Part shown: one piece after another, positions 1,708 to 46,453 of the stretch
Position numbering within the stretch: position 1 is the first letter of the stretch
How the letters are laid out: each line of letters starts with the position of its first letter
Source of the DNA: Firmicutes bacterium CAG:460
Lineage (GTDB): Bacteria; Bacillota_I; Bacilli_A; RF39; UBA660
Length of the DNA: 64,000 nt
NCBI GenBank assembly: GCA_000437355.1
Contig: FR899774.1
Coordinates: 114,595 to 178,594, forward strand
Direction: 5' to 3'
The notes under the pieces: generated by a model
Database searches by the model: none
Told to the model about the DNA's origin: nothing
What the model saw: only the letters and a program-made list of their open reading frames with translations
Program-made: the position numbers and the translations under genes

Positions 1708-2772
1708 CTACTCTAAAGACATACCAGCTAGTTTTAATTTTAAATCTTCAGTTATTAAAGCTTCAATAACTGGTTCTAGTTCTCCATCCATAACTCTATC
1801 TAAAGTCATTGTTGAGAAATTTATTCTATGGTCCGTGACACGATTTTGTGGATAATTATATGTTCTTATCTTTTCCGAACGGTCACCGGTTCCAATTTTT
1901 GATTTTCTTTCAGCTCCGATTGCACTTTCTTGTTTATGCATTAATTCATCATTAATTTTAATTTTTAAAAGTTGCATTGCTCTTTCTTTGTTGCGAAGTT
2001 GACTTCTTTCAGTTTGACATGTAACAACTACTCCAGTTGGAACATGAGTTATACGAACTGCTGAGTTGGCGGTGTTAACTGATTGTCCACCAGCTCCACT
2101 AGAATGATATACATCTATTTTTAAATCACTTTCTTTAATATCGATATTGACATTATCAACTTCTGGCATTACAAGAACTGTTGATGTTGATGTATGTACC
2201 CTTCCTTGTGTTTCTGTTACAGGTACTCTTTGAACTCGGTGTGAACCACTTTCATATTTTAATTTACTATAAACATTAGCACCTTTTACCATGAATTCTA
2301 TTTGAGAATATCCTCCACTAGTACCTTCTAGAGCATGAATAACTTCAATCTTCCAACCATTTGCTTCTGCATAGTATGAATACATTCTAAATAAGTCTCC
2401 GGCGAAAATATTTGCTTCATCTCCTCCAGCTGCTCCTCTTATTTCCATAATAACATTCTTACCATCGTTTTCATCTTTTGGTACTAATAAAACTTCTAAC
2501 TCATGATATAACTTATCTATTACATTAGTTAAATTATCTATTTCTTCTAAAGCTATTTCTCTTAGTTCTGGGTCATTTTCCATAACTTTTGCTTCTTCTA
2601 AATTGTTTTTAGCTTGTTTATATTTTTGATAAGTCTTTACAGTTTCTTCTAAATCACTTTGTTCTTTTGATAATTCTTTTACTTTATTAAAATCATTTAG
2701 TATTTCAGGATTTGATAAATCCTTTGTTAATTCATTATATTTTTCTTCTATAGCATCTAATCTATTAAACAT
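1708..2772 (-). CDS. prfA: Peptide chain release factor 1
   Basis: GGQ motif (SSGAGGQSVN), PVT-like tripeptide region, RF1 length. Confidence 0.97.
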   Translation of the reverse strand: MFNRLDAIEEKYNELTKDLSNPEILNDFNKVKELSKEQSDLEETVKTYQKYKQAKNNLEEAKVMENDPELREIALEEIDNLTNVIDKLYHELEVLLVPKDENDGKNVIMEIRGAAGGDEANIFAGDLFRMYSYYAEANGWKIEVIHALEGTSGGYSQIEFMVKGANVYSKLKYESGSHRVQRVPVTETQGRVHTSTSTVLVMPEVDNVNIDIKESDLKIDVYHSSGAGGQSVNTANSAVRITHVPTGVVVTCQTERSQLRNKERAMQLLKIKINDELMHKQESAIGAERKSKIGTGDRSEKIRTYNYPQNRVTDHRINFSTMTLDRVMDGELEPVIEALITEDLKLKLAGMSLE

Positions 2773-2819
2773 TTTATCTTTCCTTTCTTTTTTAGTTATA
2801 ATAAATATTTAAAGTAGAG

Positions 2820-3251
2820 CTATAAATTACTTTCATCAAGGTCATCAACTACAACTAAATCTGCTAAATCATCATCTGGAACATCATCAGTATCATCATC
2901 TTTGTCATAGAAGATATCATCATCTTCTTCAATGTCTTCATCTTCCATGTCATTTTCATCTTCTTCGTCTTCTTCATCATCCATATCAAAAACAATATCT
3001 AATTTATGTCTTGATTGTAAATCCCAATAACCTTTGTCTAACATAACAAATTTTTTGTTGATAGACATTAGTTCAAAGAAATCCATTAATTCTTCATCAA
3101 TTCTTTCTTCAGGTAATTCTAAAACATTGATTACTTTAGCAAAAATATCACGAAGTTTCATTTTTTTGCCACTTTCTTGTAATATTAGTAAAGCAATGTC
3201 ATCATAACCCATTAATTCTAATTCTTCTTTTGGTATTTGCTTTAATTTCAT
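2820..3251 (-). CDS. rpoE: RNA polymerase delta subunit
   Basis: Folded N-terminal domain (YDDIALLILQESGKKMKLRDIF) followed by a long Asp/Glu-only tail, the Firmicute RpoE architecture. Confidence 0.8.
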   Translation of the reverse strand: MKLKQIPKEELELMGYDDIALLILQESGKKMKLRDIFAKVINVLELPEERIDEELMDFFELMSINKKFVMLDKGYWDLQSRHKLDIVFDMDDEEDEEDENDMEDEDIEEDDDIFYDKDDDTDDVPDDDLADLVVVDDLDESNL

Positions 3252-3264
3252 AAATCATTTCTCC

Positions 3265-4869
3265 TTACATTTGTTCTGGTGGGATAACCCCGATTAAATC
3301 TAGGGCATTAAATAATGTTTGTTTAACACCTTTTATTAAATTTAAATTTTCCAAAGTTTCTTGTTCGTTTTCAGTAAGTACACGATTTTTTGCATAGTAT
3401 AAATGGAATAAACTAGCAAGTTCATATACATAGTTAGTAATTAAATGTGGTAATTCTTTTAATGCCGCATTTTTTACTACTTCTGGGAACTCATAAACTT
3501 TTTCTAAAACATTATATGATGTATTGTCATTAATTGCAATATATTTTTCACATTTTTCAATATTTTCTTGTCCTTTTAAGATTGAACAAATTCTTGCATA
3601 GGCATAACATACATAAAATACTGGGTTTTCATTTGATTTACTTTTAGCTAAACTTAAGTCAAAATCCATTTGAGTATCTAAGCTATATTTAGAAAAATAA
3701 TATCTTGCTGCATTTACTCCGACTTCATCGATTAGTTCTTTTAATGTTACTGATTTACCTGTTCTTTTACTCATTTTTACAACTTCACCATTTTCTACAA
3801 GACGCACAAGTTGTAATAATTTTACTTCTAATTTTTCTGGATCATTTCCTAGAGCTTTTACACTGCTTTTTAAACGTGCTACATATCCATGATGGTCTGC
3901 TCCGAATATGTCAATCATTTTATCAAAGCCACGATTAAATTTATCCATGTGGTATGCGATATCTGGTAAAAAGTATGTTGGTATGCCATCTTCTTTAATT
4001 AATACATGGTCTTTATCATCAAACAAAGCACTACATTTAAACCATGTTGCTCCATCTAATTCATAAGTGTAGCCATTTTTATTTAAAATATTCACAACAC
4101 CCATTAAATCATATTTTTCCGATAAAGCTTTTTCACTGGTTTTAACATCATATTCAATTCTATATTCTTTTAAATCATCAAATATGTGCCCAACCATTTC
4201 ATTTGTACCTAACTTTTTAAAATAATCTAAATCATTATTTAATAAAGTATCTTGATGTTCTTCATAAAGTTTGCTCGCAATTTCAATTATTTCTTTTCCA
4301 TAATATCCATTTTTAGGCATGTTTGCTGGAAGTCCACAAGCTTCTTGATAACGAGCTAGAATTGATAAACCTAAGTTAGTTATTTGATTTCCTAAGTCAT
4401 TAATGTAATATTCTGTTGTTACATCAAAACCACTAAATCTCATGATACGAGCTAGTGAGTCACCATAAGCACCGCCACGAGCATTTCCTAAGTGTAGTAT
4501 TCCTGTTGGATTGGCACTTACAAACTCTATATTTATTTTTTTACCATTACCAATATTTGAACTACCATATCTTTCTTTTTCTTCTAAAACTTTATTTAGA
4601 TTAGCAAATAAATAATCTTTACTTACAAAGAAGTTTATAAATCCTGGAGCTTTTACTTCTATTTTTATTACATTTTCATCACTTATTTTACTAGCAATAT
4701 TATTTGCTATTTCTAAAGGATTTTTCTTTAAAACTTTAGCAAGCTTCATCGCAATATTACTTGAATAATCTCCATTTTCAGGTAATGCTGGTTTACTTAT
4801 TTCAATTTCTGCTTCAACATTTAATTCTTCTAAAGCTTTTTTAATTAATTCTTTTAATAATTCCTTCAT
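3265..4869 (-). CDS. argS: Arginine-tRNA ligase
   Basis: Class I HIGH-type motif (PTGILHLGNARG), MSKRTG (KMSKS-like), C-terminal anticodon-binding domain ending in ..PEQM. Confidence 0.95.
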   Translation of the reverse strand: MKELLKELIKKALEELNVEAEIEISKPALPENGDYSSNIAMKLAKVLKKNPLEIANNIASKISDENVIKIEVKAPGFINFFVSKDYLFANLNKVLEEKERYGSSNIGNGKKINIEFVSANPTGILHLGNARGGAYGDSLARIMRFSGFDVTTEYYINDLGNQITNLGLSILARYQEACGLPANMPKNGYYGKEIIEIASKLYEEHQDTLLNNDLDYFKKLGTNEMVGHIFDDLKEYRIEYDVKTSEKALSEKYDLMGVVNILNKNGYTYELDGATWFKCSALFDDKDHVLIKEDGIPTYFLPDIAYHMDKFNRGFDKMIDIFGADHHGYVARLKSSVKALGNDPEKLEVKLLQLVRLVENGEVVKMSKRTGKSVTLKELIDEVGVNAARYYFSKYSLDTQMDFDLSLAKSKSNENPVFYVCYAYARICSILKGQENIEKCEKYIAINDNTSYNVLEKVYEFPEVVKNAALKELPHLITNYVYELASLFHLYYAKNRVLTENEQETLENLNLIKGVKQTLFNALDLIGVIPPEQM

Positions 4870-7309: not shown

Positions 7310-7633
7310 ATGTATAATTATCCTTTTAAAGAAAATGAAGAACATGTGTTAAATGAAACAGAAAACGTTAATATTAAATTTGCTAATAGAAATATACTTG
7401 TTAATATTTTGTTAACCAATAAAAATGTTTTAGTATTTTATGATACTGAGAAAGATAATGCTATGAAAGCTGGAGGAATGCAAGTAATGCCTCAGTATGA
7501 AATAGTTTTTAAAATTGATTTAGGTAATATGGATTATAAAATAAATGAAGAAGATACAGTAGTTAATATTGATGGTAAAGAAGTTATTTTATATAATTTT
7601 AATTTAAAAAATTTCATAGAAAAAGATGATTAG
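7310..7633 (+). CDS. Hypothetical small protein
   Basis: ATG at 7310 with AGGTGA SD. No recognisable motif. Convergent with the noc-like gene, overlapping its stop by 4 nt. Confidence 0.5.
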   Translation: MYNYPFKENEEHVLNETENVNIKFANRNILVNILLTNKNVLVFYDTEKDNAMKAGGMQVMPQYEIVFKIDLGNMDYKINEEDTVVNIDGKEVILYNFNLKNFIEKDD

Positions 7634-8730
7634 TTATCATCTTTTTTAATTATTATATTTATATGATATTCGTTTGGTAAACTCATTTCTTCTAGTTTAA
7701 CCTTGTTGCTATCTAAATTTAGGTCACGGATTGTTTTTATAACATAATTTAGATAATCATTGTTTTCATTATTTGTTGGAGTTTCTGGAAAATCTAGCAT
7801 TTCAATTTCTTCAGTTTGATTTTCAGGTACAACACTTTCTTGTTTTGGTATTTCAAATGTTGGGGTAACTTCTGTTGTGTCTAAGTTTGCTGCCGTATCT
7901 TCAAGAAAATTAAAGAATTTGTTTGGCATTTTTTCAGGATTTGAGAAGAATGCATCTGGGGTAATTGGTGTTGTATCAATTAATTTTTCAGGTTCTTCAT
8001 GTGGTACGATATCTTCACTTTCTAAAGCACTTGAAAATAAGTCTTCAATACTTGTTAGATTTTCTTTTTTTGGTTCTTCGTGAGTCTCAACATTAACTGG
8101 AGTTTCAACTGGAGGTAATGTATCAATGTTTTTTATTTCATCTTCAAGCTGTTTTACTGTTAATCTTTCATTTATTATTTTATTTAATAATTCTTTTTGT
8201 TTTTCATGTGATGGAACTTTTAGTAAAGTTCTAGCATGTCTTTCTGATATTTTTTCTGCCAGAATTGCTTCTTGAACTGCTTCATCTAGTGTTAATAACC
8301 TTAATTTATTAGAAATTGCTGATTGAGATAAGCCCATTTTTCTTGCTAATTCTTCTTGGGTCATGTAACCTTTATCAAGAAGTGCTTGGTAAGAACGTGC
8401 TTCTTCAATAGCTGTTAAATCCTTTCTTTGAATATTTTCAACAATTGCTACTTCAGCTGATGTATTATCATCAAGATTAGAGATTACTGCAGGTACTGAA
8501 GCAAGTCCAGCAAGTTTGGCTGCTTTATATCTTCTTTCACCAGCAATTATTTCATATTTATCATTTTTTCTTCTTAAAACTAGTGGTTGAATAATACCAT
8601 GTTGTTTAATAGAAGATGCTAAATCTGAAAGCGATGCATCATCAAAAGATAACCGTGGTTGAAAACGGTTAGGAATTATGTCCTCGATAGGAACTTGTAA
8701 TATTGTTTTTTCCATTTGTGTATTATTCAC
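7630..8730 (-). CDS. noc: ParB/Noc-family CTP-dependent DNA-binding protein, Noc-like HTH, with a ~170-aa low-complexity C-terminal extension
   Basis: Contains PNRFQPR, GERRYKAAKLAG (arginine patch), LSQSAISNKLRLLTL and ISERHARTLL. Immediately downstream of rsmG, the position noc holds in B. subtilis. Confidence 0.7.
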   Translation of the reverse strand: MNNTQMEKTILQVPIEDIIPNRFQPRLSFDDASLSDLASSIKQHGIIQPLVLRRKNDKYEIIAGERRYKAAKLAGLASVPAVISNLDDNTSAEVAIVENIQRKDLTAIEEARSYQALLDKGYMTQEELARKMGLSQSAISNKLRLLTLDEAVQEAILAEKISERHARTLLKVPSHEKQKELLNKIINERLTVKQLEDEIKNIDTLPPVETPVNVETHEEPKKENLTSIEDLFSSALESEDIVPHEEPEKLIDTTPITPDAFFSNPEKMPNKFFNFLEDTAANLDTTEVTPTFEIPKQESVVPENQTEEIEMLDFPETPTNNENNDYLNYVIKTIRDLNLDSNKVKLEEMSLPNEYHINIIIKKDDN

Positions 8731-8770: not shown

Positions 8771-9493
8771 TTAGATTTTTGCAAGGGGCTTTTTAATAAT
8801 TTTTTCATAAGGCCTTAATTCACTAGGTAATGTATCATTTATTTTTTTTATCTTAACAATATTTCTTGCTCCACCTTCATTTGGTAAAGAAAAAGTTTTA
8901 ATTTCTTTAACTTCTCCATGAGACTTAGTAATTGCAGGCAGGCTTTTTGCAATTTCTTCTTTATTACCACCTTTTAAAGCAATGAAATATCCACCATTTT
9001 TTATAAGGGGCAAAGCAAGTTCTGTTAAAACAGGCATGTTAGCTACTGCTCTAGCTGTTATGACATCATAAGAATTTAATCTTTCTTTTCTTATATTTTC
9101 TACTCTTGTGTTGATAAGTTCAAGGTTATCAACACAAATTTTTTCTTGTAATTCTGTTAGGAACTTTATCTTTTTATTATTACTATCTAACAAAGTTACC
9201 TTTAATTCTGGGAAAAATATCTTTAAAACCATTCCTGGAAAGCCTGCTCCAGTACCAAAATCAAGAAGATTTTTACAAGTCTTTAAATCAATTACTTTGG
9301 TTAGTGTTAAACTATCATAAAAATGTTTTAAATAAATATCTTCTAATTTAGTTATCGCTGTAAGATTAGTATGTTCATTATATTCTTGTAAAAACTTAGC
9401 ATAAATATCTAATTTTTCCAATATTTCTTTCGTAGGATTTAAACCTAAAGATTTTACTTCTTCAATAAATTCATTAATTGTCATTTTTGCCAT
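8771..9493 (-). CDS. rsmG: 16S rRNA (guanine527-N7)-methyltransferase
   Basis: SAM motif DFGTGAGFPG. Conserved mnmG-rsmG synteny. An alternative ATG at 9484 is possible. Confidence 0.92.
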   Translation of the reverse strand: MAKMTINEFIEEVKSLGLNPTKEILEKLDIYAKFLQEYNEHTNLTAITKLEDIYLKHFYDSLTLTKVIDLKTCKNLLDFGTGAGFPGMVLKIFFPELKVTLLDSNNKKIKFLTELQEKICVDNLELINTRVENIRKERLNSYDVITARAVANMPVLTELALPLIKNGGYFIALKGGNKEEIAKSLPAITKSHGEVKEIKTFSLPNEGGARNIVKIKKINDTLPSELRPYEKIIKKPLAKI

Positions 9494-12860: not shown

Positions 12861-14177
12861 TCAACATCCTTTTACATTATGAACTAATATATTACTTTCT
12901 GATACATAATAAGTATGGTTATTTGCTACCTCAAAATTATAAACAATATTATTTTCTTTCATATATTCAATTTTATTTATGTTTATAAGTTCATTATTAC
13001 TATCTAATAATTTGTCAGTTAATTTCAAATCTTTAACAGCTATCCATTCGTAGTTGTTATTTCTTAATACATAAAATCTATGATATGGTGTAACTCTAAT
13101 TATTTCATTATTTAAATATAAATTATAAATTTCAATATCTTCATGAATAAATGTTTTTGTAACTTTGTTTAATTCAACTTTATTTGTTGTTTCATTGTAT
13201 GAGTATACAATGTCATTAACTCTAATGTCTTCAATATTTTTATAACCATTTTTAGTAAATATTTTTGTACCAGCTGTAAAACAAGATACAGTTACAGTTT
13301 CGGTTGTATATGTTTCAGATTTATTTCCCTCATTATCAATTATATACACTGTAAAATTAAATTCTCCTCCATTACAAAAAAGTCTATCATCCGTCGGTAT
13401 ATAATATGTAAATTCATTTAAAGATCTTGATTGTTGTTCAAAATATTCTCCTTCTTTACTTGGATTAGTTTTTTTTGCTTTAATATAAGAAGTACTGATC
13501 TCATTTTTGCTTGTATATTGAATATTTAATTTTATAACCCTCCAGTCTGCACTTACAACTGTAATAGAGTTAATAACAGGTTTTGATGCTTTAGTTGTAC
13601 TACTTAATGTATAATTAGATGATTTATTGCCTTTTGTATCATCAACATAAACTACAATATTATACGTTGTGCTATCATCAAGACTACTAAATGTATAAGT
13701 ATTACTGTTACTTTCTGTAAATGTTGTTCCATTATCTTTAGAATAATAATATTTATTTACATCAAATGTTCCCTTTTTAGATGTAGAATTTATCGTTATT
13801 GTACTATCTGTTACTTCTGTTACGGATGCGATTATCGTTGGTAAAATTAATTTATCAAAATAAATATAGCATTTATCTGACATATTTCCTGTCATTAAAA
13901 TAACTTTTCTTGTATCATCCCAACTTAGTTCTCCACCATTTTCACATTTTGATAATGTTGCATTAAAAAGATATCCAGTTGTTGGCCAATTTTCTCCAGA
14001 AGACATAATATAATCTCCACTATCATTTTCTAAATAATATGATAATAAATTTTTCTTTTTTCTAACAACTAGATTGTTCTCATCTTGAAATTCAATTTTC
14101 TCATTATTAGAAATTACATTTATTGTTATTGTGCATGCGATAAATACAGATGCTACTATCGCTAATTTTTTTCTCAC
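12861..14177 (-). CDS. Predicted lipoprotein with two FN3/Ig-like beta modules and a C-terminal Hint (intein/Hedgehog-type autoprocessing) domain
   Basis: GTG start with TAAGGA SD. Lipobox VFIAC (Cys16). The Hint domain spans residues 299-434: CFTAGTKIF (block A), TPYHRF (block B TxxH) and NHTYYVSESNILVHN (blocks F/G). Only VKGC follows. Confidence 0.75.
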   Translation of the reverse strand: MRKKLAIVASVFIACTITINVISNNEKIEFQDENNLVVRKKKNLLSYYLENDSGDYIMSSGENWPTTGYLFNATLSKCENGGELSWDDTRKVILMTGNMSDKCYIYFDKLILPTIIASVTEVTDSTITINSTSKKGTFDVNKYYYSKDNGTTFTESNSNTYTFSSLDDSTTYNIVVYVDDTKGNKSSNYTLSSTTKASKPVINSITVVSADWRVIKLNIQYTSKNEISTSYIKAKKTNPSKEGEYFEQQSRSLNEFTYYIPTDDRLFCNGGEFNFTVYIIDNEGNKSETYTTETVTVSCFTAGTKIFTKNGYKNIEDIRVNDIVYSYNETTNKVELNKVTKTFIHEDIEIYNLYLNNEIIRVTPYHRFYVLRNNNYEWIAVKDLKLTDKLLDSNNELININKIEYMKENNIVYNFEVANNHTYYVSESNILVHNVKGC

Positions 14178-15552: not shown

Positions 15553-16893
15553 TTATAGTTTTGTCTCAGATATGTATCTTTTTAGTAAGAATGTTAAAAA
15601 ATATGGAAATGTGTAAAATTTACCATTAAAACCAATGTTTTTACTACATAACTTAATACCATATTTTATATCTTTGTACTTTTCGCTATTTATCAAGTTG
15701 TTCAATGAAACAGTTGCATTATCATTTGCTTTAACTTCAACTGGAATTAATGAATTTTTATCTCTAATAAAGAAATCCATTTCTATTGTGCCTTTTTCAT
15801 TTTTATAAAAATACAACCTGTATCCTTCTTTAACTAGCATTTCCCCAATAATATTTTCATATATTGCACCTTTATAAGTATTAAAATTATTATTTTTTCT
15901 TAAATCTTCTTGAGCTTCATCATCTAATGATGCAATTAATAATCCAGTATCTGAGAAATATAATCTATAATTTTCTGGATTATAATTTCCTTTTAAAGGT
16001 AGTTCACAGACCTCCATGCAATATGATATATTCACTATTCCAGCATCAGACAACCAATCTGATACACCTCGATATTCACGATTTCTAGCACCTTCAGTTA
16101 TTTTTGAAATTTGAAATTTCTTGTTTTCATTTCCTAAAAATGCAGCTATCTTTCTATATGCATTTAAAACTCTTGCTTTATCTAAACCTTGAGCATATTT
16201 TGCTATATCCTCTTCATAGTCAAGTAATATTTGTTTTTGCATATCTAGGATGCCACTAAAGTTTTTTTCCTCTACAAATTTAGATACAATGGCTGGCATA
16301 CCACCAACTAACATATATTCTTTAAATAATTCCATCATCACATTCATTTCTGTACTTGATAAAGGTGTACAATTTTTCATACATACATAAAGGTCCTCTA
16401 TTTGACTTTCTTTATAACCTTTAGCCCATAAAAATTCTTCAAAATCCATTGAATACATAATGTAATCCTGTTTATTACCTACACTATTTGACTCAATTTC
16501 ATTATAATTAATGCCCATCATTGAACCAGAACATATTACATCAAACCTTTTATCAATATTAAACGACTTTAATGATGTTGCACAATTAATACAATCTTGA
16601 ATTTCATCGAAAAATATTAATGTTTCGCCAGGTTCAAAAACAAGCTCATTATTAATTAATGATATATTTTTAATTATTTCATCTACTCCAAAGCCACTGT
16701 CAAATATGCTTTTATATTCTTTATGTATTGCAAAATTTATTTCAATAAAGTTTTTATAATTATTTTTCGCAAAATTTTCTATTGCATCTGTTTTTCCTAT
16801 TTGTCTAGCACCTTTTACTATAAGTGGCATTTTAAAATCTGAGTTTTTCCAATCTATTAAAAATTGGTCAATTTTTCGCTTTAATCTTGGCAT
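15553..16893 (-). CDS. AAA+ ATPase of the AAA_14/DUF4143 type
   Basis: Walker A GARQIGKT and Walker B LIFFDEIQ. The long C-terminal region has the DUF4143-like layout. GAGGTGA SD upstream of ATG at 16893. Confidence 0.75.
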   Translation of the reverse strand: MPRLKRKIDQFLIDWKNSDFKMPLIVKGARQIGKTDAIENFAKNNYKNFIEINFAIHKEYKSIFDSGFGVDEIIKNISLINNELVFEPGETLIFFDEIQDCINCATSLKSFNIDKRFDVICSGSMMGINYNEIESNSVGNKQDYIMYSMDFEEFLWAKGYKESQIEDLYVCMKNCTPLSSTEMNVMMELFKEYMLVGGMPAIVSKFVEEKNFSGILDMQKQILLDYEEDIAKYAQGLDKARVLNAYRKIAAFLGNENKKFQISKITEGARNREYRGVSDWLSDAGIVNISYCMEVCELPLKGNYNPENYRLYFSDTGLLIASLDDEAQEDLRKNNNFNTYKGAIYENIIGEMLVKEGYRLYFYKNEKGTIEMDFFIRDKNSLIPVEVKANDNATVSLNNLINSEKYKDIKYGIKLCSKNIGFNGKFYTFPYFLTFLLKRYISETKL

Positions 16894-20766: not shown

Positions 20767-20817
20767 TTTACATCATTATGATTATAACACAAATTTTTGT
20801 TAATAACTAGCTATTTT

Positions 20818-21023
20818 TGTGGATTGTGGATAAAATGTTGATAACTAATAAAAATTATCCACGAAATTAACAACATTTTATCAAAATAGAGTTTGTTGAT
20901 ATAATGGGGATAAGTTCATTGTTAACAAAAATTTGTTGATAGTGTTGATAAGTCGTTTTAAGTAGCATATATTAGGGATTTTTTAGGTGAATAATTTTGT
21001 GGATAAAAAAAAAGTTATCAAAA
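20818..21023. other. oriC part 1: DnaA-box cluster upstream of dnaA
   Basis: Perfect TGTGGATAA at 20825-20833 and 20998-21006. One-mismatch boxes: TGTTGATAA at 20836-20844 and 20943-20951, TTATCCACG at 20855-20863. Weaker boxes at 20818, 20894, 20934 and 21015. Confidence 0.85.
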
Positions 21024-21099
21024 TTGCAAATTTACTCTTTTATTTTTTGTAAAAATAGGTTAAAATTTAGTTATGAAATTTAGTTAGCGGGGTGAGGTT

Positions 21100-22443: not shown

Positions 22444-22548
22444 TGTTGATAAAATGGGGGTAAAAAATTAAGATTTTTCTAGGAAATAAAAGAATGTTAA
22501 TTAGTTATCCACGTTATTAACGCTATTAATAAATAATAATAAATAAAC
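22444..22548. other. oriC part 2: DnaA boxes plus an AT-only candidate unwinding element between dnaA and dnaN
   Basis: TGTTGATAA at 22444-22452 and TTATCCACG at 22505-22513, followed by an uninterrupted A/T run with TAA repeats (about 22524-22548). Confidence 0.65.
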
Positions 22549-22571
22549 ATAAAGAAAGAAGGATGTAAAAT

Positions 22572-23690: not shown

Positions 23691-23788
23691 TTATGAAGAA
23701 AATGAACAAAATTGCACTTGTTCGTTTTTTTTCGACAAATTTTTTTACTTTGATGTGGTATTATAACCAACTAAGAAAGGAGGATATT

Positions 23789-24214
23789 ATGTTTAAAATT
23801 AGTAATAATACCCTTTTTATGGAGTTTGATGGAAGTAATACTTTAGTTATGGAAGCTGATGCTGATTATGTATTTGATGGAGATGTAATAAATACTATTT
23901 TAGATGAAAGTTGTATTTATTATGGAAGTTCATTAAATGGAAGAATTAAAGGAAGTAAAAATATAATAGGAAGTTATTATAAATTACCAGTTATAGTTAG
24001 TGAAAGAAATAATATTGTGTTTTTTCCTCTTAAAAAAGGTAATTGTTGGTGGTGGATTAATTTTAATAGTGTTAAATATTTTGAAAAAACTAGTAATGGA
24101 GTTCTGGTAAGTTTTAAAAATGAACTAAAAAAATATATAAGTGTTAGTTATACAATATTTAATAATCAAATGCTTAAATGTAGTAGATTGTGGTTAGTTT
24201 ATACAACAAGATAA
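23789..24214 (+). CDS. comK: ComK-family competence transcription factor-like protein
   Basis: ATG at 23789 with AAGGAGG SD. ILDESCIYYGSSLNGRIKGS..YKLPVIVS..IVFFPL..CWWWIN..VSF..ISVSYTIFNNQ follows the ComK pattern SC.FFGSS..GR...K.PI....FP...C.WI....F....S...F.NQ. Confidence 0.7.
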   Translation: MFKISNNTLFMEFDGSNTLVMEADADYVFDGDVINTILDESCIYYGSSLNGRIKGSKNIIGSYYKLPVIVSERNNIVFFPLKKGNCWWWINFNSVKYFEKTSNGVLVSFKNELKKYISVSYTIFNNQMLKCSRLWLVYTTR

Positions 24215-27360: not shown

Positions 27361-29862
27361 ATGGATCATAGTAGAGATAGACTAGAAGAAAATAATATAG
27401 TAAGTGAAATTGAATCTTCTTTTATTGAATATTCAATGAGTGTTATTATTTCCAGAGCTTTACCAGATTTAAGAGATGGTTTAAAGCCAGTTCATAGAAG
27501 AATTATTTATGATATGTTAGAAAATGGTTTAACACCAGATAAAAAACATCGTAAGAGTGCGACGATAGTTGGGGATGTTATGGGGAAATATCACCCTCAT
27601 GGAGACTCATCAATTTATGAAGCTATGGTAAGAATGGCTCAAGATTTTAACTATCGTTATTTACTTGTTGATGGACATGGTAACTTTGGTAATATTGAAT
27701 ATCCTAGAGCAGCTGCTTATCGTTATACTGAAAGTAAACTTGCAAAGATATCAATGGAGCTTTTAAGGGATATCAACAAAAATACGGTTAATTTTGTACC
27801 AAATTATGATGATTCAACTGAAGAACCTGAAGTTTTACCTTCAAGATTTCCAAATATTTTAGTTAATGGAACAATGGGTATTGCTGTTGGTATGGCAACA
27901 AATATTCCACCACATAATTTAGGTGAGGTTATTGATGGATGTATTGCTTATATTGATAATCCTGAAATTACTACGGAAGAATTAATGCAATATGTTAAAG
28001 GCCCTGATTTTCCAACTGGTGGTATTATTCTAGGTAATTCTGGAATTAAAAAAGCGTATGAAACTGGTAGAGGTTCAATAACTATTAGAAGTAAAGCTAC
28101 AATTGAAGAAAAAAATGGAAGACATTATATTGTTATTGAAGAAGTTCCATACGGAGTAAATACACTAGATTTAAAACAAAAAGTTGCGGATTTAGTACAT
28201 AATAAAGTACTTGAAGGTATTACTGATTATCATACTGATTTAAAAGATGGTATTAAGATTACTATTACATTAAAGAAGGATGCAAATCCTCAAGTAGTTT
28301 TAAATAATTTGTATAAACATACTGCTTTTCAAACAACTTTTGGTATTATCTTCTTAATGCTTGATAAAGGTGTTCCAAGAACACTAGGTTTGAAAGATAT
28401 AATTAGTAAATATGTAGATTATCAACAAGAAATTATTATTAGAAGAACTCAATTTGAATTAGATAAAGCAGAAAAAAGAGTACATATCTTAGAAGGTTAC
28501 CAAATTGTATTTGATAATATCGATGAAGTTATTAAGATTATTAAAGAGTCTAAGGCTGATGGTGAAGCAAAGCTTAAATTAATGGAACGTTTTGGATTAA
28601 CTGAAGCTCAAACTGATAATATTTTAGAAATGAAATTACGTCGTTTAACAGGTCTAGAACGTGAAAAGATTGAAGAAGAACTAAATACTTTAAAACTAGA
28701 AATAGAACGCTTACGTGGCATTTTAGCAGATAATAATAAGGTGTTAGGTATCATTAAAGATGAAATGACTGAAATAAAAAATAAATATGGTGATGAAAGA
28801 AGAACTAAAATTGATATGACTGCGGTTGATTACATTGAAGATGAGTCTTTAATACCAGAAGAAAATATCTTAGTTGTGCTTACTAACAAAGGTTATATTA
28901 AGAGAACTACATCTGATACATTTAAGTCACAAAATAGAGGTGGCGTTGGAATTAAGGGAATGTCTACGAATGATGAAGACTTTGTTGAACACATGATTAA
29001 CTTATCAACACACGATTACATCTTGTTCTTTACTGATAAAGGTAAAGTTTATAGATTAAAAGGTTATGAAATTCCAGAGTTTTCACGTCAATCTAAAGGA
29101 ATTCCAATTGTTAACTTACTTCAAGTTGAAAAAGATGAAAGAGTTAATGCTGTTATCCAAATAAGTCGTGAAGAAGAATGTAAATATTTATTATTCGCTA
29201 CTGAAGGTGGAGTTGTAAAGAAAACATTAATTAGTGAATTTGCTAATATTAGAAATAGTGGTAAGATTTGTATTTCTCTAAGAGAAAATGATAAATTAAT
29301 TGATGTTAAGAAAACAACTGGTAATGATTTAGTACTTTTAGGTAGTGATAGCGGTAGAATGGTTAAGTTTAATGAAGATGAAATCAGAGTTATGGGACGT
29401 ACTGCTTCAGGTGTTCGTGGTATTTCTCTAGATGGAAGCAAATGTATTTGTTCTGAAATCGTTAAAGAAGATGATACTATCTTACTTGTAACAGAAAAAG
29501 GTTACGGTAAACAAACAAAAGTTAGTGAATATCGCCAAACAAGAAGAGGTTCTAAAGGTGTTAAAGCAATGAATATCACTGAAAAGAACGGAAATCTTGT
29601 TAGTGTTAAAATTGTTTATGAAGGTAAAGAACTTGTTATTATGACAAATTCAGGTATGACAATGAGAATGCCTTTAGAACAAATATCTTTATTAGGTCGT
29701 GTTACACAAGGTTTAAGACTTATCAACTTAAAAGATAATCAAAAGGTATCAACTATAAGCTTAGTAGATAAAGAAGAAGAACCAGATATTGTTTCAGAAC
29801 CTACTGTAAATGAAACACCTAGTGAAAATACTGAAAATATTGAAGTAAATGAGGCTGAATAA
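27361..29862 (+). CDS. gyrA: DNA gyrase subunit A
   Basis: DGLKPVHRR, catalytic-Tyr region AAYRYTE, QRDR-like [11 protein letters not shown]-terminal beta-pinwheel repeats. Confidence 0.98.
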
Positions 29863-30036
29863 GCCTTTTTTATTTTATTGTAACAGTGTATATAAAGTAT
29901 ATACAATGTTATTTTTGCTATAAGATTATGATATTATAACTAAAGCAAAAAAGAAGAATATAAGTTATCAACAAAATATTTATTTTAAGTACTCTTTAAT
30001 TGGTAAAACAATTTATTATTTTTTTGTAAAGTGTTA

Positions 30037-30783
30037 TGTTTCACGTGAAACAATGTGTGAATAATATGTTAGTTTAGGATTTATTTTTTTTAATATATTT
30101 TTAAAATTATAATACAATAACAATAATTAAAAATAATTAATATTGTTTTCGATGTTTAAATTCTTTTTCTAATTATTATTATAATTATAGTGATGTTTCA
30201 CGTGAAACATTGTGTTGATAAGTTGTTGATTTAAGATATATTTATAATATTAAATATTTTATATTTTAAATTATCTTTTTATTATTATTAATTACTATAT
30301 TTTAATATATATTTATTTTATATATTTTAAAATACATGTTTCACGTGAAACATTGTTGATAAGTTGTTTATATTAATATTATTTCTATTAATTCTAATCT
30401 TTTTTAATAATATAAATACCATGTGATTATTAAAATAATTTAATGTTTCACGTGAAACATTGTGTTGATAATATGTTTATATTCTGTTTTAGTTTAATTA
30501 TTATATTAAATTTAATCTTTTTCCAATTTAAATTATATGTTTCACGTGAAACATATTGTTGATAACGTGTTAATTTAAGGTTTATCTATATTAATATGTA
30601 TTTTTAATATTATAATACAAGATTTTCGTAAATATATATTTAATATTATTAATCGTTAATTATTATTTTTAAATTCTATATAATTTCCTATTAAAAATTT
30701 AGGTAATGTTTCACGTGAAACATTGTTAATAGGTTGTGAATAGTTTTATTGAAAATTAATACCCATATGTTACACGTGAAACA
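30037..30783. promoter_or_regulatory. Array of seven parS (ParB-binding centromere) sites
   Basis: TGTTTCACGTGAAACA at 30037-30052, 30194-30209, 30337-30352, 30444-30459, 30538-30553 and 30707-30722. TGTTACACGTGAAACA at 30768-30783. All fit the Firmicute parS consensus TGTTNCACGTGAAACA. Confidence 0.85.
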
Positions 30784-30865
30784 TATGGACGAACAAATGT
30801 ACAATAAACTAATACTTTAACATAAGAATTTAATTATTCATTTTTATCAAATCGTATTTATAAAT

Positions 30866-30881
30866 TATTTCCCGGGAAATA
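30866..30881. promoter_or_regulatory. Noc-binding site (NBS), perfect 16-mer
   Basis: TATTTCCCGGGAAATA, containing the published B. subtilis NBS core ATTTCCCGGGAAAT. It lies inside a 22-bp perfect palindrome (30863-30884). Confidence 0.75.
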
Positions 30882-31022
30882 ATTAGTTAACATAATATTT
30901 TAGTATATTTGTGTTTTTTTGAAAAAATAAATGTTAATTAAAGCTAGATACAATAAGGTAAAAACAAGAATAGCAAGATTAAAAAAATTATTATTTTAAC
31001 AATTATTTAATTTTTGAATAAA

Positions 31023-31038
31023 TATTTCCCGGGAAATA
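31023..31038. promoter_or_regulatory. Noc-binding site (NBS), perfect 16-mer
   Basis: TATTTCCCGGGAAATA. It is part of a 38-nt direct repeat (31024-31061) that matches 30867-30904 at 37 of 38 positions and also carries a GTTAAC palindrome. Confidence 0.75.
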
Positions 31039-31207
31039 ATTGGTTAACATAATATTTTAGTCGATTAAACTTATATTAATATTTAATTTTTGGCATATTT
31101 TAGCCAAAATATTAATCATAATTAAAAATAGTACATGAGTTATCAACATAAAAATTAGTTAAATATTTAATACTATAATAACTATATAATAAATGTTGGT
31201 ATTTTAC

Positions 31208-31236
31208 TTGACTTTTAAATAGTAATTTGATACGAT
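31208..31236 (+). promoter_or_regulatory. Sigma-A type promoter of the SRP RNA gene
   Basis: TTGACT (31208-31213), 17-nt spacer, TACGAT (31231-31236). Confidence 0.6.
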
Positions 31237-31240
31237 GTAA

Positions 31241-31320
31241 ACGTGCAACAAATATGCTGTAACCTGGTCAGGATTGGAAAATAGCAGCCACATCAGCCTA
31301 TGTTTGTGTGCACATTTTTT
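31241..31320 (+). ncRNA. ffs: Small (4.5S-type) signal recognition particle RNA
   Basis: CCUGGUCAGGAUUGGAAAAUAGCAGCC matches the conserved domain IV (GGUCAGG..GGAA..AGCAGCC). The 5' GTGCAACAAATATGCTG pairs with the 3' CAGCCTATGTTTGTGTGCAC. A T-run follows. The position upstream of tadA/dnaX is typical. Confidence 0.8.
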
Positions 31321-31331
31321 TTGGAGGTAAA

Positions 31332-36148: not shown

Positions 36149-36842
36149 TTTATTTGATTATCCAAATAGATACATTATGCAAATAAAAGATGGATTTAAG
36201 TTTTCTTTAGATTCTTTATTGTTAGCAGAGTTTGTAAATATTAGAAAAAGTGATAAGATTATTTTGGATATGTGTACTGGAAATGCTCCGATTCCTTTAA
36301 TTTTAAGTTTAAAAACAGATGCTTTAATTGTAGGATTTGAAATTCAAAAAGATATTAGTGATTTGGCTCAAGAGTCTGTAATACTCAATGGATTAAAAGA
36401 TAATATTAGAATAATAAATGATGATATAAAAAATATAAATAAACATTATAAAACGGGAACATTTGATATAATAACATGTAATCCCCCATATTTTAAAACT
36501 AGTGAGGATGGTTACAAAAATAAAAATGATTATTTAACACTTGCAAGACATGAAATAACAATTGATTTAGATAGTTTGTTTAGTATAGCAAAGAGTTATT
36601 TAAAAGATAATGGTGTTTTTTGTTTAGTTCATCGTGCTGAAAGATTAGATGATATTATGTATTTGGGAAGAATAAATAATTTAAATGTAAAAGATTTACA
36701 ATTTATATCTACTAAAAATGGAAGTATTCCAAATACAATATTAGTTAAATGTGTTAAAAATAGTAAACCAGGTGTTAAATTAAGAAAAGAAATTTGTGTT
36801 GATAACCTTAGTACTTATCAACATATATTTGAAAGTAGGTGA
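36126..36842 (+). CDS. SAM-dependent tRNA (adenine-N6)-methyltransferase, YabB/TrmN6-like
   Basis: DMCTGNAPIPL SAM motif and NPPYF catalytic motif. Synteny after ricT. Confidence 0.75.
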   Translation: MISKVKNDLFDYPNRYIMQIKDGFKFSLDSLLLAEFVNIRKSDKIILDMCTGNAPIPLILSLKTDALIVGFEIQKDISDLAQESVILNGLKDNIRIINDDIKNINKHYKTGTFDIITCNPPYFKTSEDGYKNKNDYLTLARHEITIDLDSLFSIAKSYLKDNGVFCLVHRAERLDDIMYLGRINNLNVKDLQFISTKNGSIPNTILVKCVKNSKPGVKLRKEICVDNLSTYQHIFESR

Positions 36843-41149: not shown

Positions 41150-41360
41150 AAACTATGTTTAGTTTAACGAAGAAGGAAAGAGTAGGTATCTTAGTTTCAT
41201 AGAGATTTCTTGGTTGGTGGAAAAGAAAAAATGAAGATATACGAACATGGCTCTGGAGTTAAAATCGGGTAATTACGTTAAAGATTTTAAGTTGCATGAT
41301 AAATCATGAATTAAGGTGGTACCGCGGGTTATACTCGTCCTTAGTTTGTGATTTTTTTAT
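41150..41360 (+). promoter_or_regulatory. T-box leader (tRNA-sensing riboswitch), probable Met specifier
   Basis: AGAGA box and GGUGG distal region (41201-41220). Candidate specifier AUG followed by A at 41231-41234. F-box-like ACGUUA. T-box AAGGTGGTACCGCG at 41313-41326. Terminator arms 41301-41316 and 41339-41354 compete with the AAGG/CCTT antiterminator, and a T-run follows. Confidence 0.75.
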
Positions 41361-45661: not shown

Positions 45662-46453
45662 ATGGTGATATTTATTTTGAATATAGAAAAAGGTGATTAT
45701 GTAACTAGAAATAGTTATAATAATGATACTGTTTTTAAAGTAATTAATATTAAAAATGGCATTTATTATTTAAAAGGCGTAGAAGTAAGATTAGTTGCTG
45801 ATGCAGAAGTAACTGACTTAAGAAAAGAAGAAAATATAAATGAAGAAGATGTAATTGATGATATTGATTTATTAGAAGATAATTTAAATAGAGGAGAATT
45901 TTTTTATTTACCAGCGAAAGCTTTACATATTGACTCAGATGAAGAATATTTATCGAGATGTTTAAAATTTTATAAAAGAAATGGTATTATGGCAGTGGGT
46001 AAAAAAATTAATGAAAAAAATGTGTATGAACAATTACCAATGCTTTTAAAAGAATTTAAACCTGATATTGTTGTAATTACTGGACATGATGCTTATTACA
46101 GAAAAAAAGGAGATGCTAAAGATATTAAAAATTATAAGAATTCTCTTTATTTTGTTAAAGCTGTAAAGGCTGCGAGAAATTATGAAAAAAGTCATGAAAA
46201 ATTAGTCATTATTGCTGGAGCATGTCAAAGTGATTATGAAGAACTAATTAAAGCAGGAGCTAATTTTGCATCAAGTCCTAAAAGAGTTAATATACATGCC
46301 TTGGACCCAGCGATTATTGCAAGTACAGTAGCTTTAACAGAGAGAAATAAAGAAATTGATTTGAAAAAATTACTTGAGAAAACTAAATATAAAGAAGATG
46401 GAATGGGAGGTCTTATTTGTAATGGCCTTATGTATGTTGGGTATCCAAGATAA
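45662..46453 (+). CDS. yabG: Sporulation-specific protease YabG (peptidase U57)
   Basis: GDYVTRNSYNNDTVFKV.. N-terminus, VVITGHDAY and AGACQS motifs, synteny after rsmA. TTG at 45677 is an equally plausible start. Confidence 0.85.
   Translation: MVIFILNIEKGDYVTRNSYNNDTVFKVINIKNGIYYLKGVEVRLVADAEVTDLRKEENINEEDVIDDIDLLEDNLNRGEFFYLPAKALHIDSDEEYLSRCLKFYKRNGIMAVGKKINEKNVYEQLPMLLKEFKPDIVVITGHDAYYRKKGDAKDIKNYKNSLYFVKAVKAARNYEKSHEKLVIIAGACQSDYEELIKAGANFASSPKRVNIHALDPAIIASTVALTERNKEIDLKKLLEKTKYKEDGMGGLICNGLMYVGYPR

Follow-up and report, generated by a model that had tools for sequence, protein, structure and literature searches.

Composite units of parS and predicted DnaA boxes downstream of gyrA in Firmicutes bacterium CAG:460 and related Bacilli

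Described systems and the gyrA hub

We analysed 64,000 nucleotides of Firmicutes bacterium CAG:460 (contig FR899774.1, positions 114,595 to 178,594; this whole stretch is called the window, and positions are counted from its first letter), which are the origin region of a genome of ~26% GC. Our subject is a non-coding hub of 1.37 kb that reaches from the gyrA stop to the gene of the signal recognition particle (SRP) RNA (29863-31236), and in which parS, the site of ParB, is repeatedly followed at a distance of a few base pairs by a 9-mer resembling the box bound by the initiator DnaA. The coupling of replication initiation to segregation is a long-standing question with few answers, which differ in mechanism: Bacillus has Soj acting on DnaA, Caulobacter has DnaA at parS, and Vibrio has ParB2/RctB.

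DnaA of Caulobacter binds the parS centromere region and apparently licenses segregation in this way, according to a review (PMC6399470) of the work of Mera, Kalogeraki and Shapiro (2014). As described there, boxes lie in the parS region a few kb from the origin, both being read by domain IV of DnaA, and the proposed role is to couple the initiation potential to the start of segregation. Our hub likewise has boxes inside its parS region. The organism differs, being an alphaproteobacterium with a polar ParA/PopZ system, and the review's account of it does not extend to a repeated unit of parS plus box at fixed spacing. In the hub, by contrast, the composite is repeated five to six times in tandem, the hosts are uncultured low-GC Bacilli, and Noc sites stand alongside.

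Deletion of the oriC-proximal DnaA-box clusters of B. subtilis (Okumura et al. 2012) leads to early initiation and is synergistic with a deletion of spo0J, the combination being synthetically severe (PMC3245932). These clusters resemble the hub in lying near but outside oriC in a member of the Bacillota and in their density, which is comparable at about 8 good boxes per 1.2 kb; they differ in that clusters and parS are separate loci, whereas the boxes of the hub abut parS at 1-3 bp. The original prediction, made on the letters of the window alone, knew of no described DnaA-box locus coupled to ParB loading; the Caulobacter (PMC6399470) and B. subtilis (PMC3245932) cases are precedents. For the repeated unit of parS plus DnaA box with spacing defined to the base pair, or for a unit of Noc-binding site (NBS), box and parS, no description was found in a search outside which most subscription journals fell.

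Contacts between ParB and DnaA have been reported in V. cholerae and D. radiodurans (PMC7022226). In rctA/parS2 of V. cholerae chromosome 2 and in cisII/cisMP of Deinococcus an initiator and ParB share a short region that links replication control to partition (PMC6399470, PMC7671480); these cases differ from ours in concerning secondary replicons, with RctB as the initiator in Vibrio and with Deinococcus repeats that are both origin and centromere. The datA locus of E. coli is also an origin-proximal box cluster and lowers the initiation potential, but it acts through IHF-dependent hydrolysis of ATP-DnaA and has no parS, in an organism without a ParABS system. To our knowledge, Bacillota lack IHF. 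The ParB/Noc pair of B. subtilis is matched in the window by perfect NBS and parS consensus sites and by a Noc-type paralogue next to gidB. The NBS of B. subtilis are scattered over the chromosome, whereas those of the window and its relatives are concentrated in the centromere hub, and in some relatives they alternate strictly with parS or are fused with a box into a single 44 bp unit.

Composite units in the window and in related genomes

The hub contains seven parS sites, six of them perfect copies of TGTTTCACGTGAAACA and one with a single mismatch, while shuffled sequence gives 0.02. They are of the 16 bp palindromic type of the Bacillota, TGTTNCACGTGAAACA, and are origin-proximal at 9-10 kb from oriC. 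Six of the seven carry a box-like 9-mer 1-3 bp further on, namely TGTTGATAA in four cases, TGTGAATAA in one and the degenerate TGTTAATAG in one. Five of these six 9-mers are within one mismatch of TTATCCACA, and the sixth is two mismatches away from the commonest box variant of the window.

All boxes of the units lie on the minus strand. In the first unit parS 1 (30037-30052) is followed after 3 bp by the predicted box 1a (30056-30064), which reads TGTGAATAA on the plus and TTATTCACA on the minus strand, and 11 bp from it, start to start, by a weak box 1b, TGTTAGTTT (30067-30075). The next four units have TGTTGATAA (TTATCAACA on the minus strand) as their first box: parS 2 (30194-30209) with box 2a at 30213-30221 after a gap of 3 bp and the weak box 2b, TGTTGATTT, at 30224-30232; parS 3 (30337-30352) with box 3a at 30354-30362 after 1 bp and box 3b, TGTTTATAT, at 30365-30373; parS 4 (30444-30459) with box 4a at 30463-30471 after 3 bp and box 4b, again TGTTTATAT, at 30474-30482; and parS 5 (30538-30553) with box 5a at 30557-30565 after 3 bp and box 5b, TGTTAATTT, at 30568-30576. 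These four parS are perfect, as is parS 6 (30707-30722), which is followed after 1 bp by the degenerate box 6a, TGTTAATAG (30724-30732; TGTTAATAA in the relative L157), and by the weak box 6b, TGTGAATAG (30735-30743). The last site, parS 7 (30768-30783), is TGTTACACGTGAAACA with one mismatch; no box comes after it, and a conserved motif, ACGAACAAATGTA, follows instead. In the stretch 30757-30802 we also observed that parS 7 lies inside a longer palindrome, CCATATGTTACACGTGAAACATATGG; behind their last parS, several species of the genus-level group have a motif akin to ACGAACAAATGTA, ACGWACAWATG.

When the seven units are aligned, only ATGTTTCACGTGAAACAT, a gap of 0-2 bp, TGTTGATAA, two free positions (NN) and TGT(T)NAT are conserved, ~45 bp in total, and the intervening spacers (157, 143, 107, 94, 169 and 61 bp long) are AT-rich, variable and unconserved. 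The original prediction that only parS and the adjacent box are kept agrees with this, to which the alignment adds the weaker TGTTNAT box, beginning 11 bp after the start of the parS-adjacent box in six units. Its view that every parS is coupled to a box stood for six of the seven sites, one of them with a degenerate box, and did not stand for the boxless parS 7. The positions it gave for parS-adjacent, oriC and bracketing boxes were all recovered in a re-scan, and box 6a at 30724, the second weak boxes and two perfect Noc sites came in addition. In composites of the window type the box, read as TTATCAACA, has its ...ACA end directly at parS, and in four of six units the proximal parS half-site, the first box and the second box are each ~11 bp apart, a spacing from which one might suppose that the helix-turn-helix of ParB and two DnaA domain IVs sit on one face of the helix.

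Two predicted boxes of opposite orientation bracket the units, as had been noticed before, both being TTATCAACA on the plus strand. The left one (29965-29973) lies 100 bp past the gyrA stop and is 100% conserved in L152 and L157, and the right one (31140-31148), which precedes the -35 of the likely SRP RNA promoter by ~60 bp, is intact in L157 despite diverged flanks. A regulation of the ffs-tadA-dnaX operon by DnaA through this right box is possible. The hub thus counts seven boxes within one mismatch, one degenerate and six weak ones in 1.2 kb, that is, several boxes in non-coding DNA near oriC, as in a DnaA-box cluster outside oriC; five of the seven one-mismatch boxes abut a parS.

The pairing exceeds what chance or recent duplication would give. 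The box word occurs 23 times in the whole window where 2.2 occurrences are expected, a ten-fold excess. With a strict box defined as TTWTNCACA or TTATCAACA, five of the seven parS sites of the window have one within 10 bp, and at a per-site probability of 0.016 the binomial P is ~2e-8. Since the units are repeats, the sites of the window are not independent, and hence the comparison with other genomes is the real test. For an unbiased set we fetched the same region through GyrA alone from the species representatives of GTDB. A strict box lies within 10 bp of a parS in 7 of 23 genomes, where the locus-wide box density predicts 1.5 (P 0.0018 with the window left out). This significance at the genome level vanishes if the chance of a box near parS is set to five times the locus-average estimate, and we therefore ran a permutation in which parS was re-placed at random inside its own hub, because boxes might simply be dense in hubs. 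In the 22 clade genomes 15 parS have a box within 10 bp against 4.08 +/- 1.81 in the permutations (0 of 5000 reached it), and at the genome level 7 genomes stand against 3.3 expected (P 0.012). The enrichment next to parS, which the original prediction had proposed to test, is supported in the window as well as across these genomes. A search without any given motif points the same way: among the hexamers most enriched no more than 20 bp from parS and present in four or more genomes are TCCACA, TATCCA, GGATAA, TTGTTG, TTGATA and TGATAA, all fragments of TTATCCACA or TTATCAACA.

The nearest genomes by GyrA, which is 59-81% identical, are metagenome-assembled gut "uncultured Bacilli" or "Tenericutes". 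The order from dnaA to gyrA, the gap, tadA and dnaX is kept in 24 of 24 clade members, and a parS cluster occupies the gap in nearly all members whose sequence reaches it. We scanned metagenomes with the pattern TTATCMACA-N0-6-parS, so that the loci obtained are selected for at least one composite. At least 119 loci match this arrangement of box, 0-6 bp and parS, and at least 70 of them pass a filter for the low-GC clade and for the gyrA/tadA/dnaX context. Many arrays among the matches listed hold 4-7 relaxed composites, above the single match required for detection. Of 146 distinct flanks, again among the matches listed, 74 have a gap of 1 bp and 35 one of 3 bp, where the pattern allowed 0-6 bp equally. 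All but one of the composite-bearing genomes among these matches show a single polarity, and both polarities relative to gyrA and oriC are common among the lineages. Since the polarity flips between lineages, what is conserved is the local relation of box and parS and not the direction of the fork. The fixed orientation that had been claimed for the units is therefore right for this local relation, but not relative to gyrA or oriC, and two genomes (L009, L013) have the opposite arrangement.

Among the close relatives, which the same scan supplied, L152 and L094 belong to the same species as the window, L157 has 91% identity in GyrA and four further species groups have 78-97%. All of these relatives, whose GyrA identities span 78-98%, keep parS, 0-5 bp, a TGTTGATAA-like 9-mer, NN and TGTTNAT with spacers of varying length and sequence, and all end the array with a boxless last parS and then one to three NBS. 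Within this sub-clade the 9-mer does not drift freely beside a kept parS, because the pairing is retained where the spacers can no longer be aligned.

Other combinations of the sites exist as well. A triple composite of 44 bp, NBS-aatt-TTATCCACA-a-parS with a perfect box, is present in 5, 4 and 2 copies in L083, L155 and L163, respectively. The copies are 270-420 bp apart in L083 (at ~2338-3895, on the reverse strand as fetched) and L155, and those of L163, a much more distant lineage of 38% GC, are at 97-141 and 516-560. In four boxless arrays parS and Noc sites alternate strictly, with periods of ~64, 125, 82 and 73 bp in L014 (3819-4310), L015 (12471-13170), L017 (13107-13750) and L024 (2843-3180), respectively. 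Judged by its predicted sites, the gyrA gap offers the whole clade a landing pad for as many as three chromosome-organising proteins, in combinations that differ between lineages.

Outside the clade, at 36-48% GC, we observed single parS sites with a perfect TGTGGATAA 2-6 bp further on in small parS clusters (L084 at 2224, L087 at 2090, L146 at 7937, L109 at 5553, L140 at 1095, L156 at 1768 and L174 at 2917). A classical parB gene is near the pair in at least L084, L087 and L146.

Possible readings of the composite hub

The 9-mers behave as DnaA boxes, as a comparison of their sequences with the origins supports, which bears out a part of the original interpretation. The words next to parS are identical to words at the oriC of the window genome, where TGTTGATAA was found at 20836, 20943 and 22444 as the original prediction had it, and across the compared genomes the variant beside parS goes with that at oriC. 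The window and L016 have TTATCAACA both at oriC and next to parS, L009 and L013 have boxes of the TTTTCCACA type at both places, and in L002 the perfect TTATCCACA occurs at oriC and again 1 bp away from parS; in L004 TTATCCACA is next to parS, and a scan of 600 bp of its oriC gave no one-mismatch box. Substitutions in relatives stay in the box family, as in the box of unit 1, where L157 has the perfect TGTGGATAA in place of the window's TGTGAATAA, or in the change of TGTTGATAA to TGTTTATAA or TGTTAATAA. A literature search for the word TTATCAACA gave nothing relevant. Separately, a promoter reading of TTGATA... was tried and rejected, with 28 promoter-like sites in the hub against 20.6 +/- 4.9, which is no enrichment, and no -10 at a constant distance.

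From the sites, their spacing and polarity, their conservation in the clade and their match to the oriC variants we infer that DnaA would bind the units, meet ParB there and influence initiation or segregation. The reading we favour, with a probability of roughly 0.5, is that the hub is a centromere doubling as a DnaA-box cluster, in which DnaA would be placed against ParB in each unit so that the two could influence each other. Domain IV of DnaA on the box would sit directly beside the ParB dimer bound to parS. Oligomers of ATP-DnaA at an origin extend from the ...ACA end of the box, and in the hub that direction would enter parS, so that DnaA and ParB at a composite unit would have to touch or compete. 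Reciprocal control seems the most likely form: the occupancy by DnaA, reporting the initiation potential, would gate the nucleation and clamp loading of ParB, and in the other direction the occupancy by ParB would set how much DnaA the origin-proximal sink can hold. This sink would amount to about 8 good and 6 weak boxes, as many as at oriC.

We speculate further, and only tentatively, that across an order-level clade DnaA is seated against ParB, or between ParB and Noc in the 44 bp unit, that DnaA-ATP gates their CTP-dependent clamps or the reverse, and that the unit would be a cis switch tying initiation to segregation and nucleoid occlusion. Such a composite switch could possibly replace the route mediated by ParA (Soj), the latter not being seen in the window. 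The composite unit would be a defined DNA substrate on which one may ask whether DnaA and ParB help or exclude each other and whether DnaA controls CTP-dependent clamp loading, and the gap between gyrA and ffs is useful for annotating this uncultured gut lineage and for locating its origins and centromeres.

Several observations weigh against a coupling of DnaA and ParB in the hub. Some two thirds of the wider clade lack boxes in their parS hubs, where Noc sites often take their place, and the pairing is therefore dispensable for a parS hub. L009 and L013 carry the box in the opposite orientation to parS, so that a geometry in which the oligomer grows into parS is not universal; their reversed box looks like an independent solution and weakens models that demand a single geometry. 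The second box is weakly conserved outside the window's genus. Among the window, L152 and L157 the boxes are 78% and the spacers 72% conserved, which is not clearly higher; the divergence of these three is too small to tell boxes and spacers apart, and we relied on the wider comparison instead. Unequal exchange can homogenise arrays, as in L138 with its period of 84 bp, and so inflate the counts of sites. The window has neither a parB nor a parA gene within its 64 kb. The NBS have a conserved flank of their own that is not a DnaA box, and a conserved flank alone is therefore no proof of a second protein. Finally, TTATCAACA departs at position 6 from the classical stringent consensus TT(A/T)TNCACA, which comes from work on E. 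coli.

The main alternative to a coupled centromere is co-residence without coupling, in which the boxes are an origin-proximal titration cluster like those of B. subtilis or datA of E. coli, and a unit of parS plus box has been amplified as a block. We regard this as possible but less probable than coupling. Both types of site do lie together in the only large non-coding gap close to oriC, the units are repeated in tandem, and some relatives, L138 for one, show a very recent amplification; many boxes of the L009 hub are away from parS, the boxless hubs just mentioned are many, and position and copy number alone account for the action of the B. subtilis clusters (PMC3245932). What argues against it is the tight gap, the recurrent geometries and the NBS-box-parS sandwich. 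A gap of 1 or 3 bp dominates the 146 distinct flanks where anything from 0 to 6 bp was allowed, the majority of the one-mismatch hub boxes (5 of 7) abut parS, and adjacency recurs in different geometries and lineages (L009, L013 and L163), with a perfect box held between NBS and parS in the 44 bp unit. Box and gap also persist where the spacers have become too different to align.

A protein other than DnaA, for instance an OmpR-family regulator or ParB itself through an extended contact, might bind the 9-mer, but we consider this improbable. TGTTGA-N5-TGTTGA does resemble the WalR site TGTWAH-N5-TGTWAH or a reversed PhoP box, with half-motifs 11 bp apart, start to start, or one helical turn, in the window's genus, and the deviation at position 6 and the conserved NBS flank fit such a protein too. 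The ATAA part of the 9-mer is conserved, however, and as it would be mere spacer in a hexamer-repeat site, a regulator of that family is disfavoured. The second repeat is barely conserved across the clade, relatives swap in the perfect TTATCCACA or TTTTCCACA in step with their own oriC, and an extended contact of ParB is incompatible with a box that occurs in both orientations to parS across lineages.

A second replication origin or an unwinding element at the hub is very unlikely. Tandem boxes beside very AT-rich spacers would suit it, and bipartite origins are known in Bacillota. An unwinding module would need, on the ...ACA side of its box, at least three DnaA-trios within 16 bp and then an AT-rich element; in the hub units that side is taken by parS (TGTTTCACG...), without a run of NTN triplets, and for this reason the units are not unwinding modules. 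The basal unwinding system of origins (PMC8287927, PMC6669920) is like the hub in its tandem boxes of the same orientation, 2 bp apart, one strong and one weak, but differs in having trios and an AT-rich element where the hub has parS, and the strong and the weak box stand in reverse order, the stronger box of the hub being the downstream one. The minimum of the GC skew and the switch of gene strand are at dnaA and not at 30 kb, and many relatives have box-free hubs. Chance co-occurrence, to which the AT-rich TGTTGATAA in a hub of ~20% GC might lend itself, is practically dismissed by the permutation tests and by the recurrence of the pairing in dozens of genomes.

Noc sites, replication origin and other features of the window

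Two perfect NBS with the palindrome ATTTCCCGGGAAAT follow the array at 30867-30880 and 31024-31037, both with the conserved flank aattaGTTAACATAAT. In each, GTTAACATAAT begins 4-5 bp after the NBS (30867-30909 and 31020-31066), and it is not a DnaA box; this flank persists beside the NBS across most species of the genus-level group, in which other flanks diverge. The window has, as expected for a Noc site, a Noc-type ParB paralogue besides the palindrome. It is the sole ParB-family gene in the 64 kb (7630-8730, minus strand) and adjoins gidB, which lies 40 bp upstream. The assignment to the Noc type is based on a best match to Noc among solved structures, on the specificity positions Q..K..R (GLSQSAISNKLRLL...SERHAR) and on the place next to gidB. 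The protein has 366 aa with a long acidic, low-complexity C-terminal extension, and, judged against B. subtilis Noc, its start presumably falls ~25 residues short of the membrane-binding N-terminal helix, the segment with this helix being absent. No soj or spo0J gene comes after it in the window. A tblastn search of all fetched loci with this protein found classical ParB in unrelated, higher-GC contigs only, and a large protein search found its orthologues only, at 70-100% identity.

The genes up to 20.7 kb point leftward (prfA, argS, the Noc-type parB paralogue, gidB, gidA, trmE, jag, yidC and rnpA), and those from 20.7 kb rightward (dnaA, dnaN, a comK-like gene, recF, gyrB and gyrA, then tadA, dnaX, recR, holB and others). 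The cumulative GC skew turns at 20-21 kb, and predicted DnaA boxes are present in both the spacer upstream of dnaA and the dnaA-dnaN spacer, from which we place oriC at dnaA. Its first part, upstream of dnaA (20767-21099), has two TGTGGATAA, two TGTTGATAA and other one-mismatch boxes and contains the minimum of the GC skew. The second part, the dnaA-dnaN spacer (22444-22571), has TGTTGATAA, then TTATCCACG, a spacer, CTA TTA ATA... and an AT-rich run. Beyond the ...ACA end of the box there thus come a spacer, NTN triplets and AT-rich DNA, a layout that matches a described unwinding module (PMC8287927), and this part of oriC is likely the unwinding module of the genome. The strand assignment of the layout, made partly by comparison with the B. 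subtilis sequence, is probable.

The hub lies ~9-10 kb to the right of oriC. The gyrA stop is at 29862 with a terminator at 29851-29867, the SRP RNA gene is at 31237-31322, and the 2 kb composition bin that contains the hub has ~20% GC. A likely SRP RNA promoter (31208-31236) consists of TTGACT, 17 bp and TACGAT. An Rfam search gave the SRP RNA and a distant T-box only, and no other RNA element at the hub.

Elsewhere in the window we observed inverted pairs of extended boxes, TGTGTTGATAA, 8-9 bp and TTATCAACA, at 9107-9134 (inside gidB) and 36795-36823. The latter lies at the end of a methyltransferase gene, 25 bp before pth, and is conserved in L152 and L154. By their arrangement these pairs may be operator-like sites of DnaA.

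A ComK-family gene is found between dnaN and recF (23693-24214), a position which in Bacillus, we assume, is taken by the gene of a small S4-like RNA-binding protein. In the interval between trmE and jag a protein with a C-terminal pretoxin-HINT domain and an AAA/DUF4143 ATPase have been inserted (12861-14177 and 15553-16893), and these insertions break an otherwise classical order of origin-flanking genes. Further to the right, a T-box leader (41161-41345) lies upstream of the gene at 41296, and a gene at 45662-46453 encodes a YabG-type (U57) peptidase, whose family is associated with sporulation.

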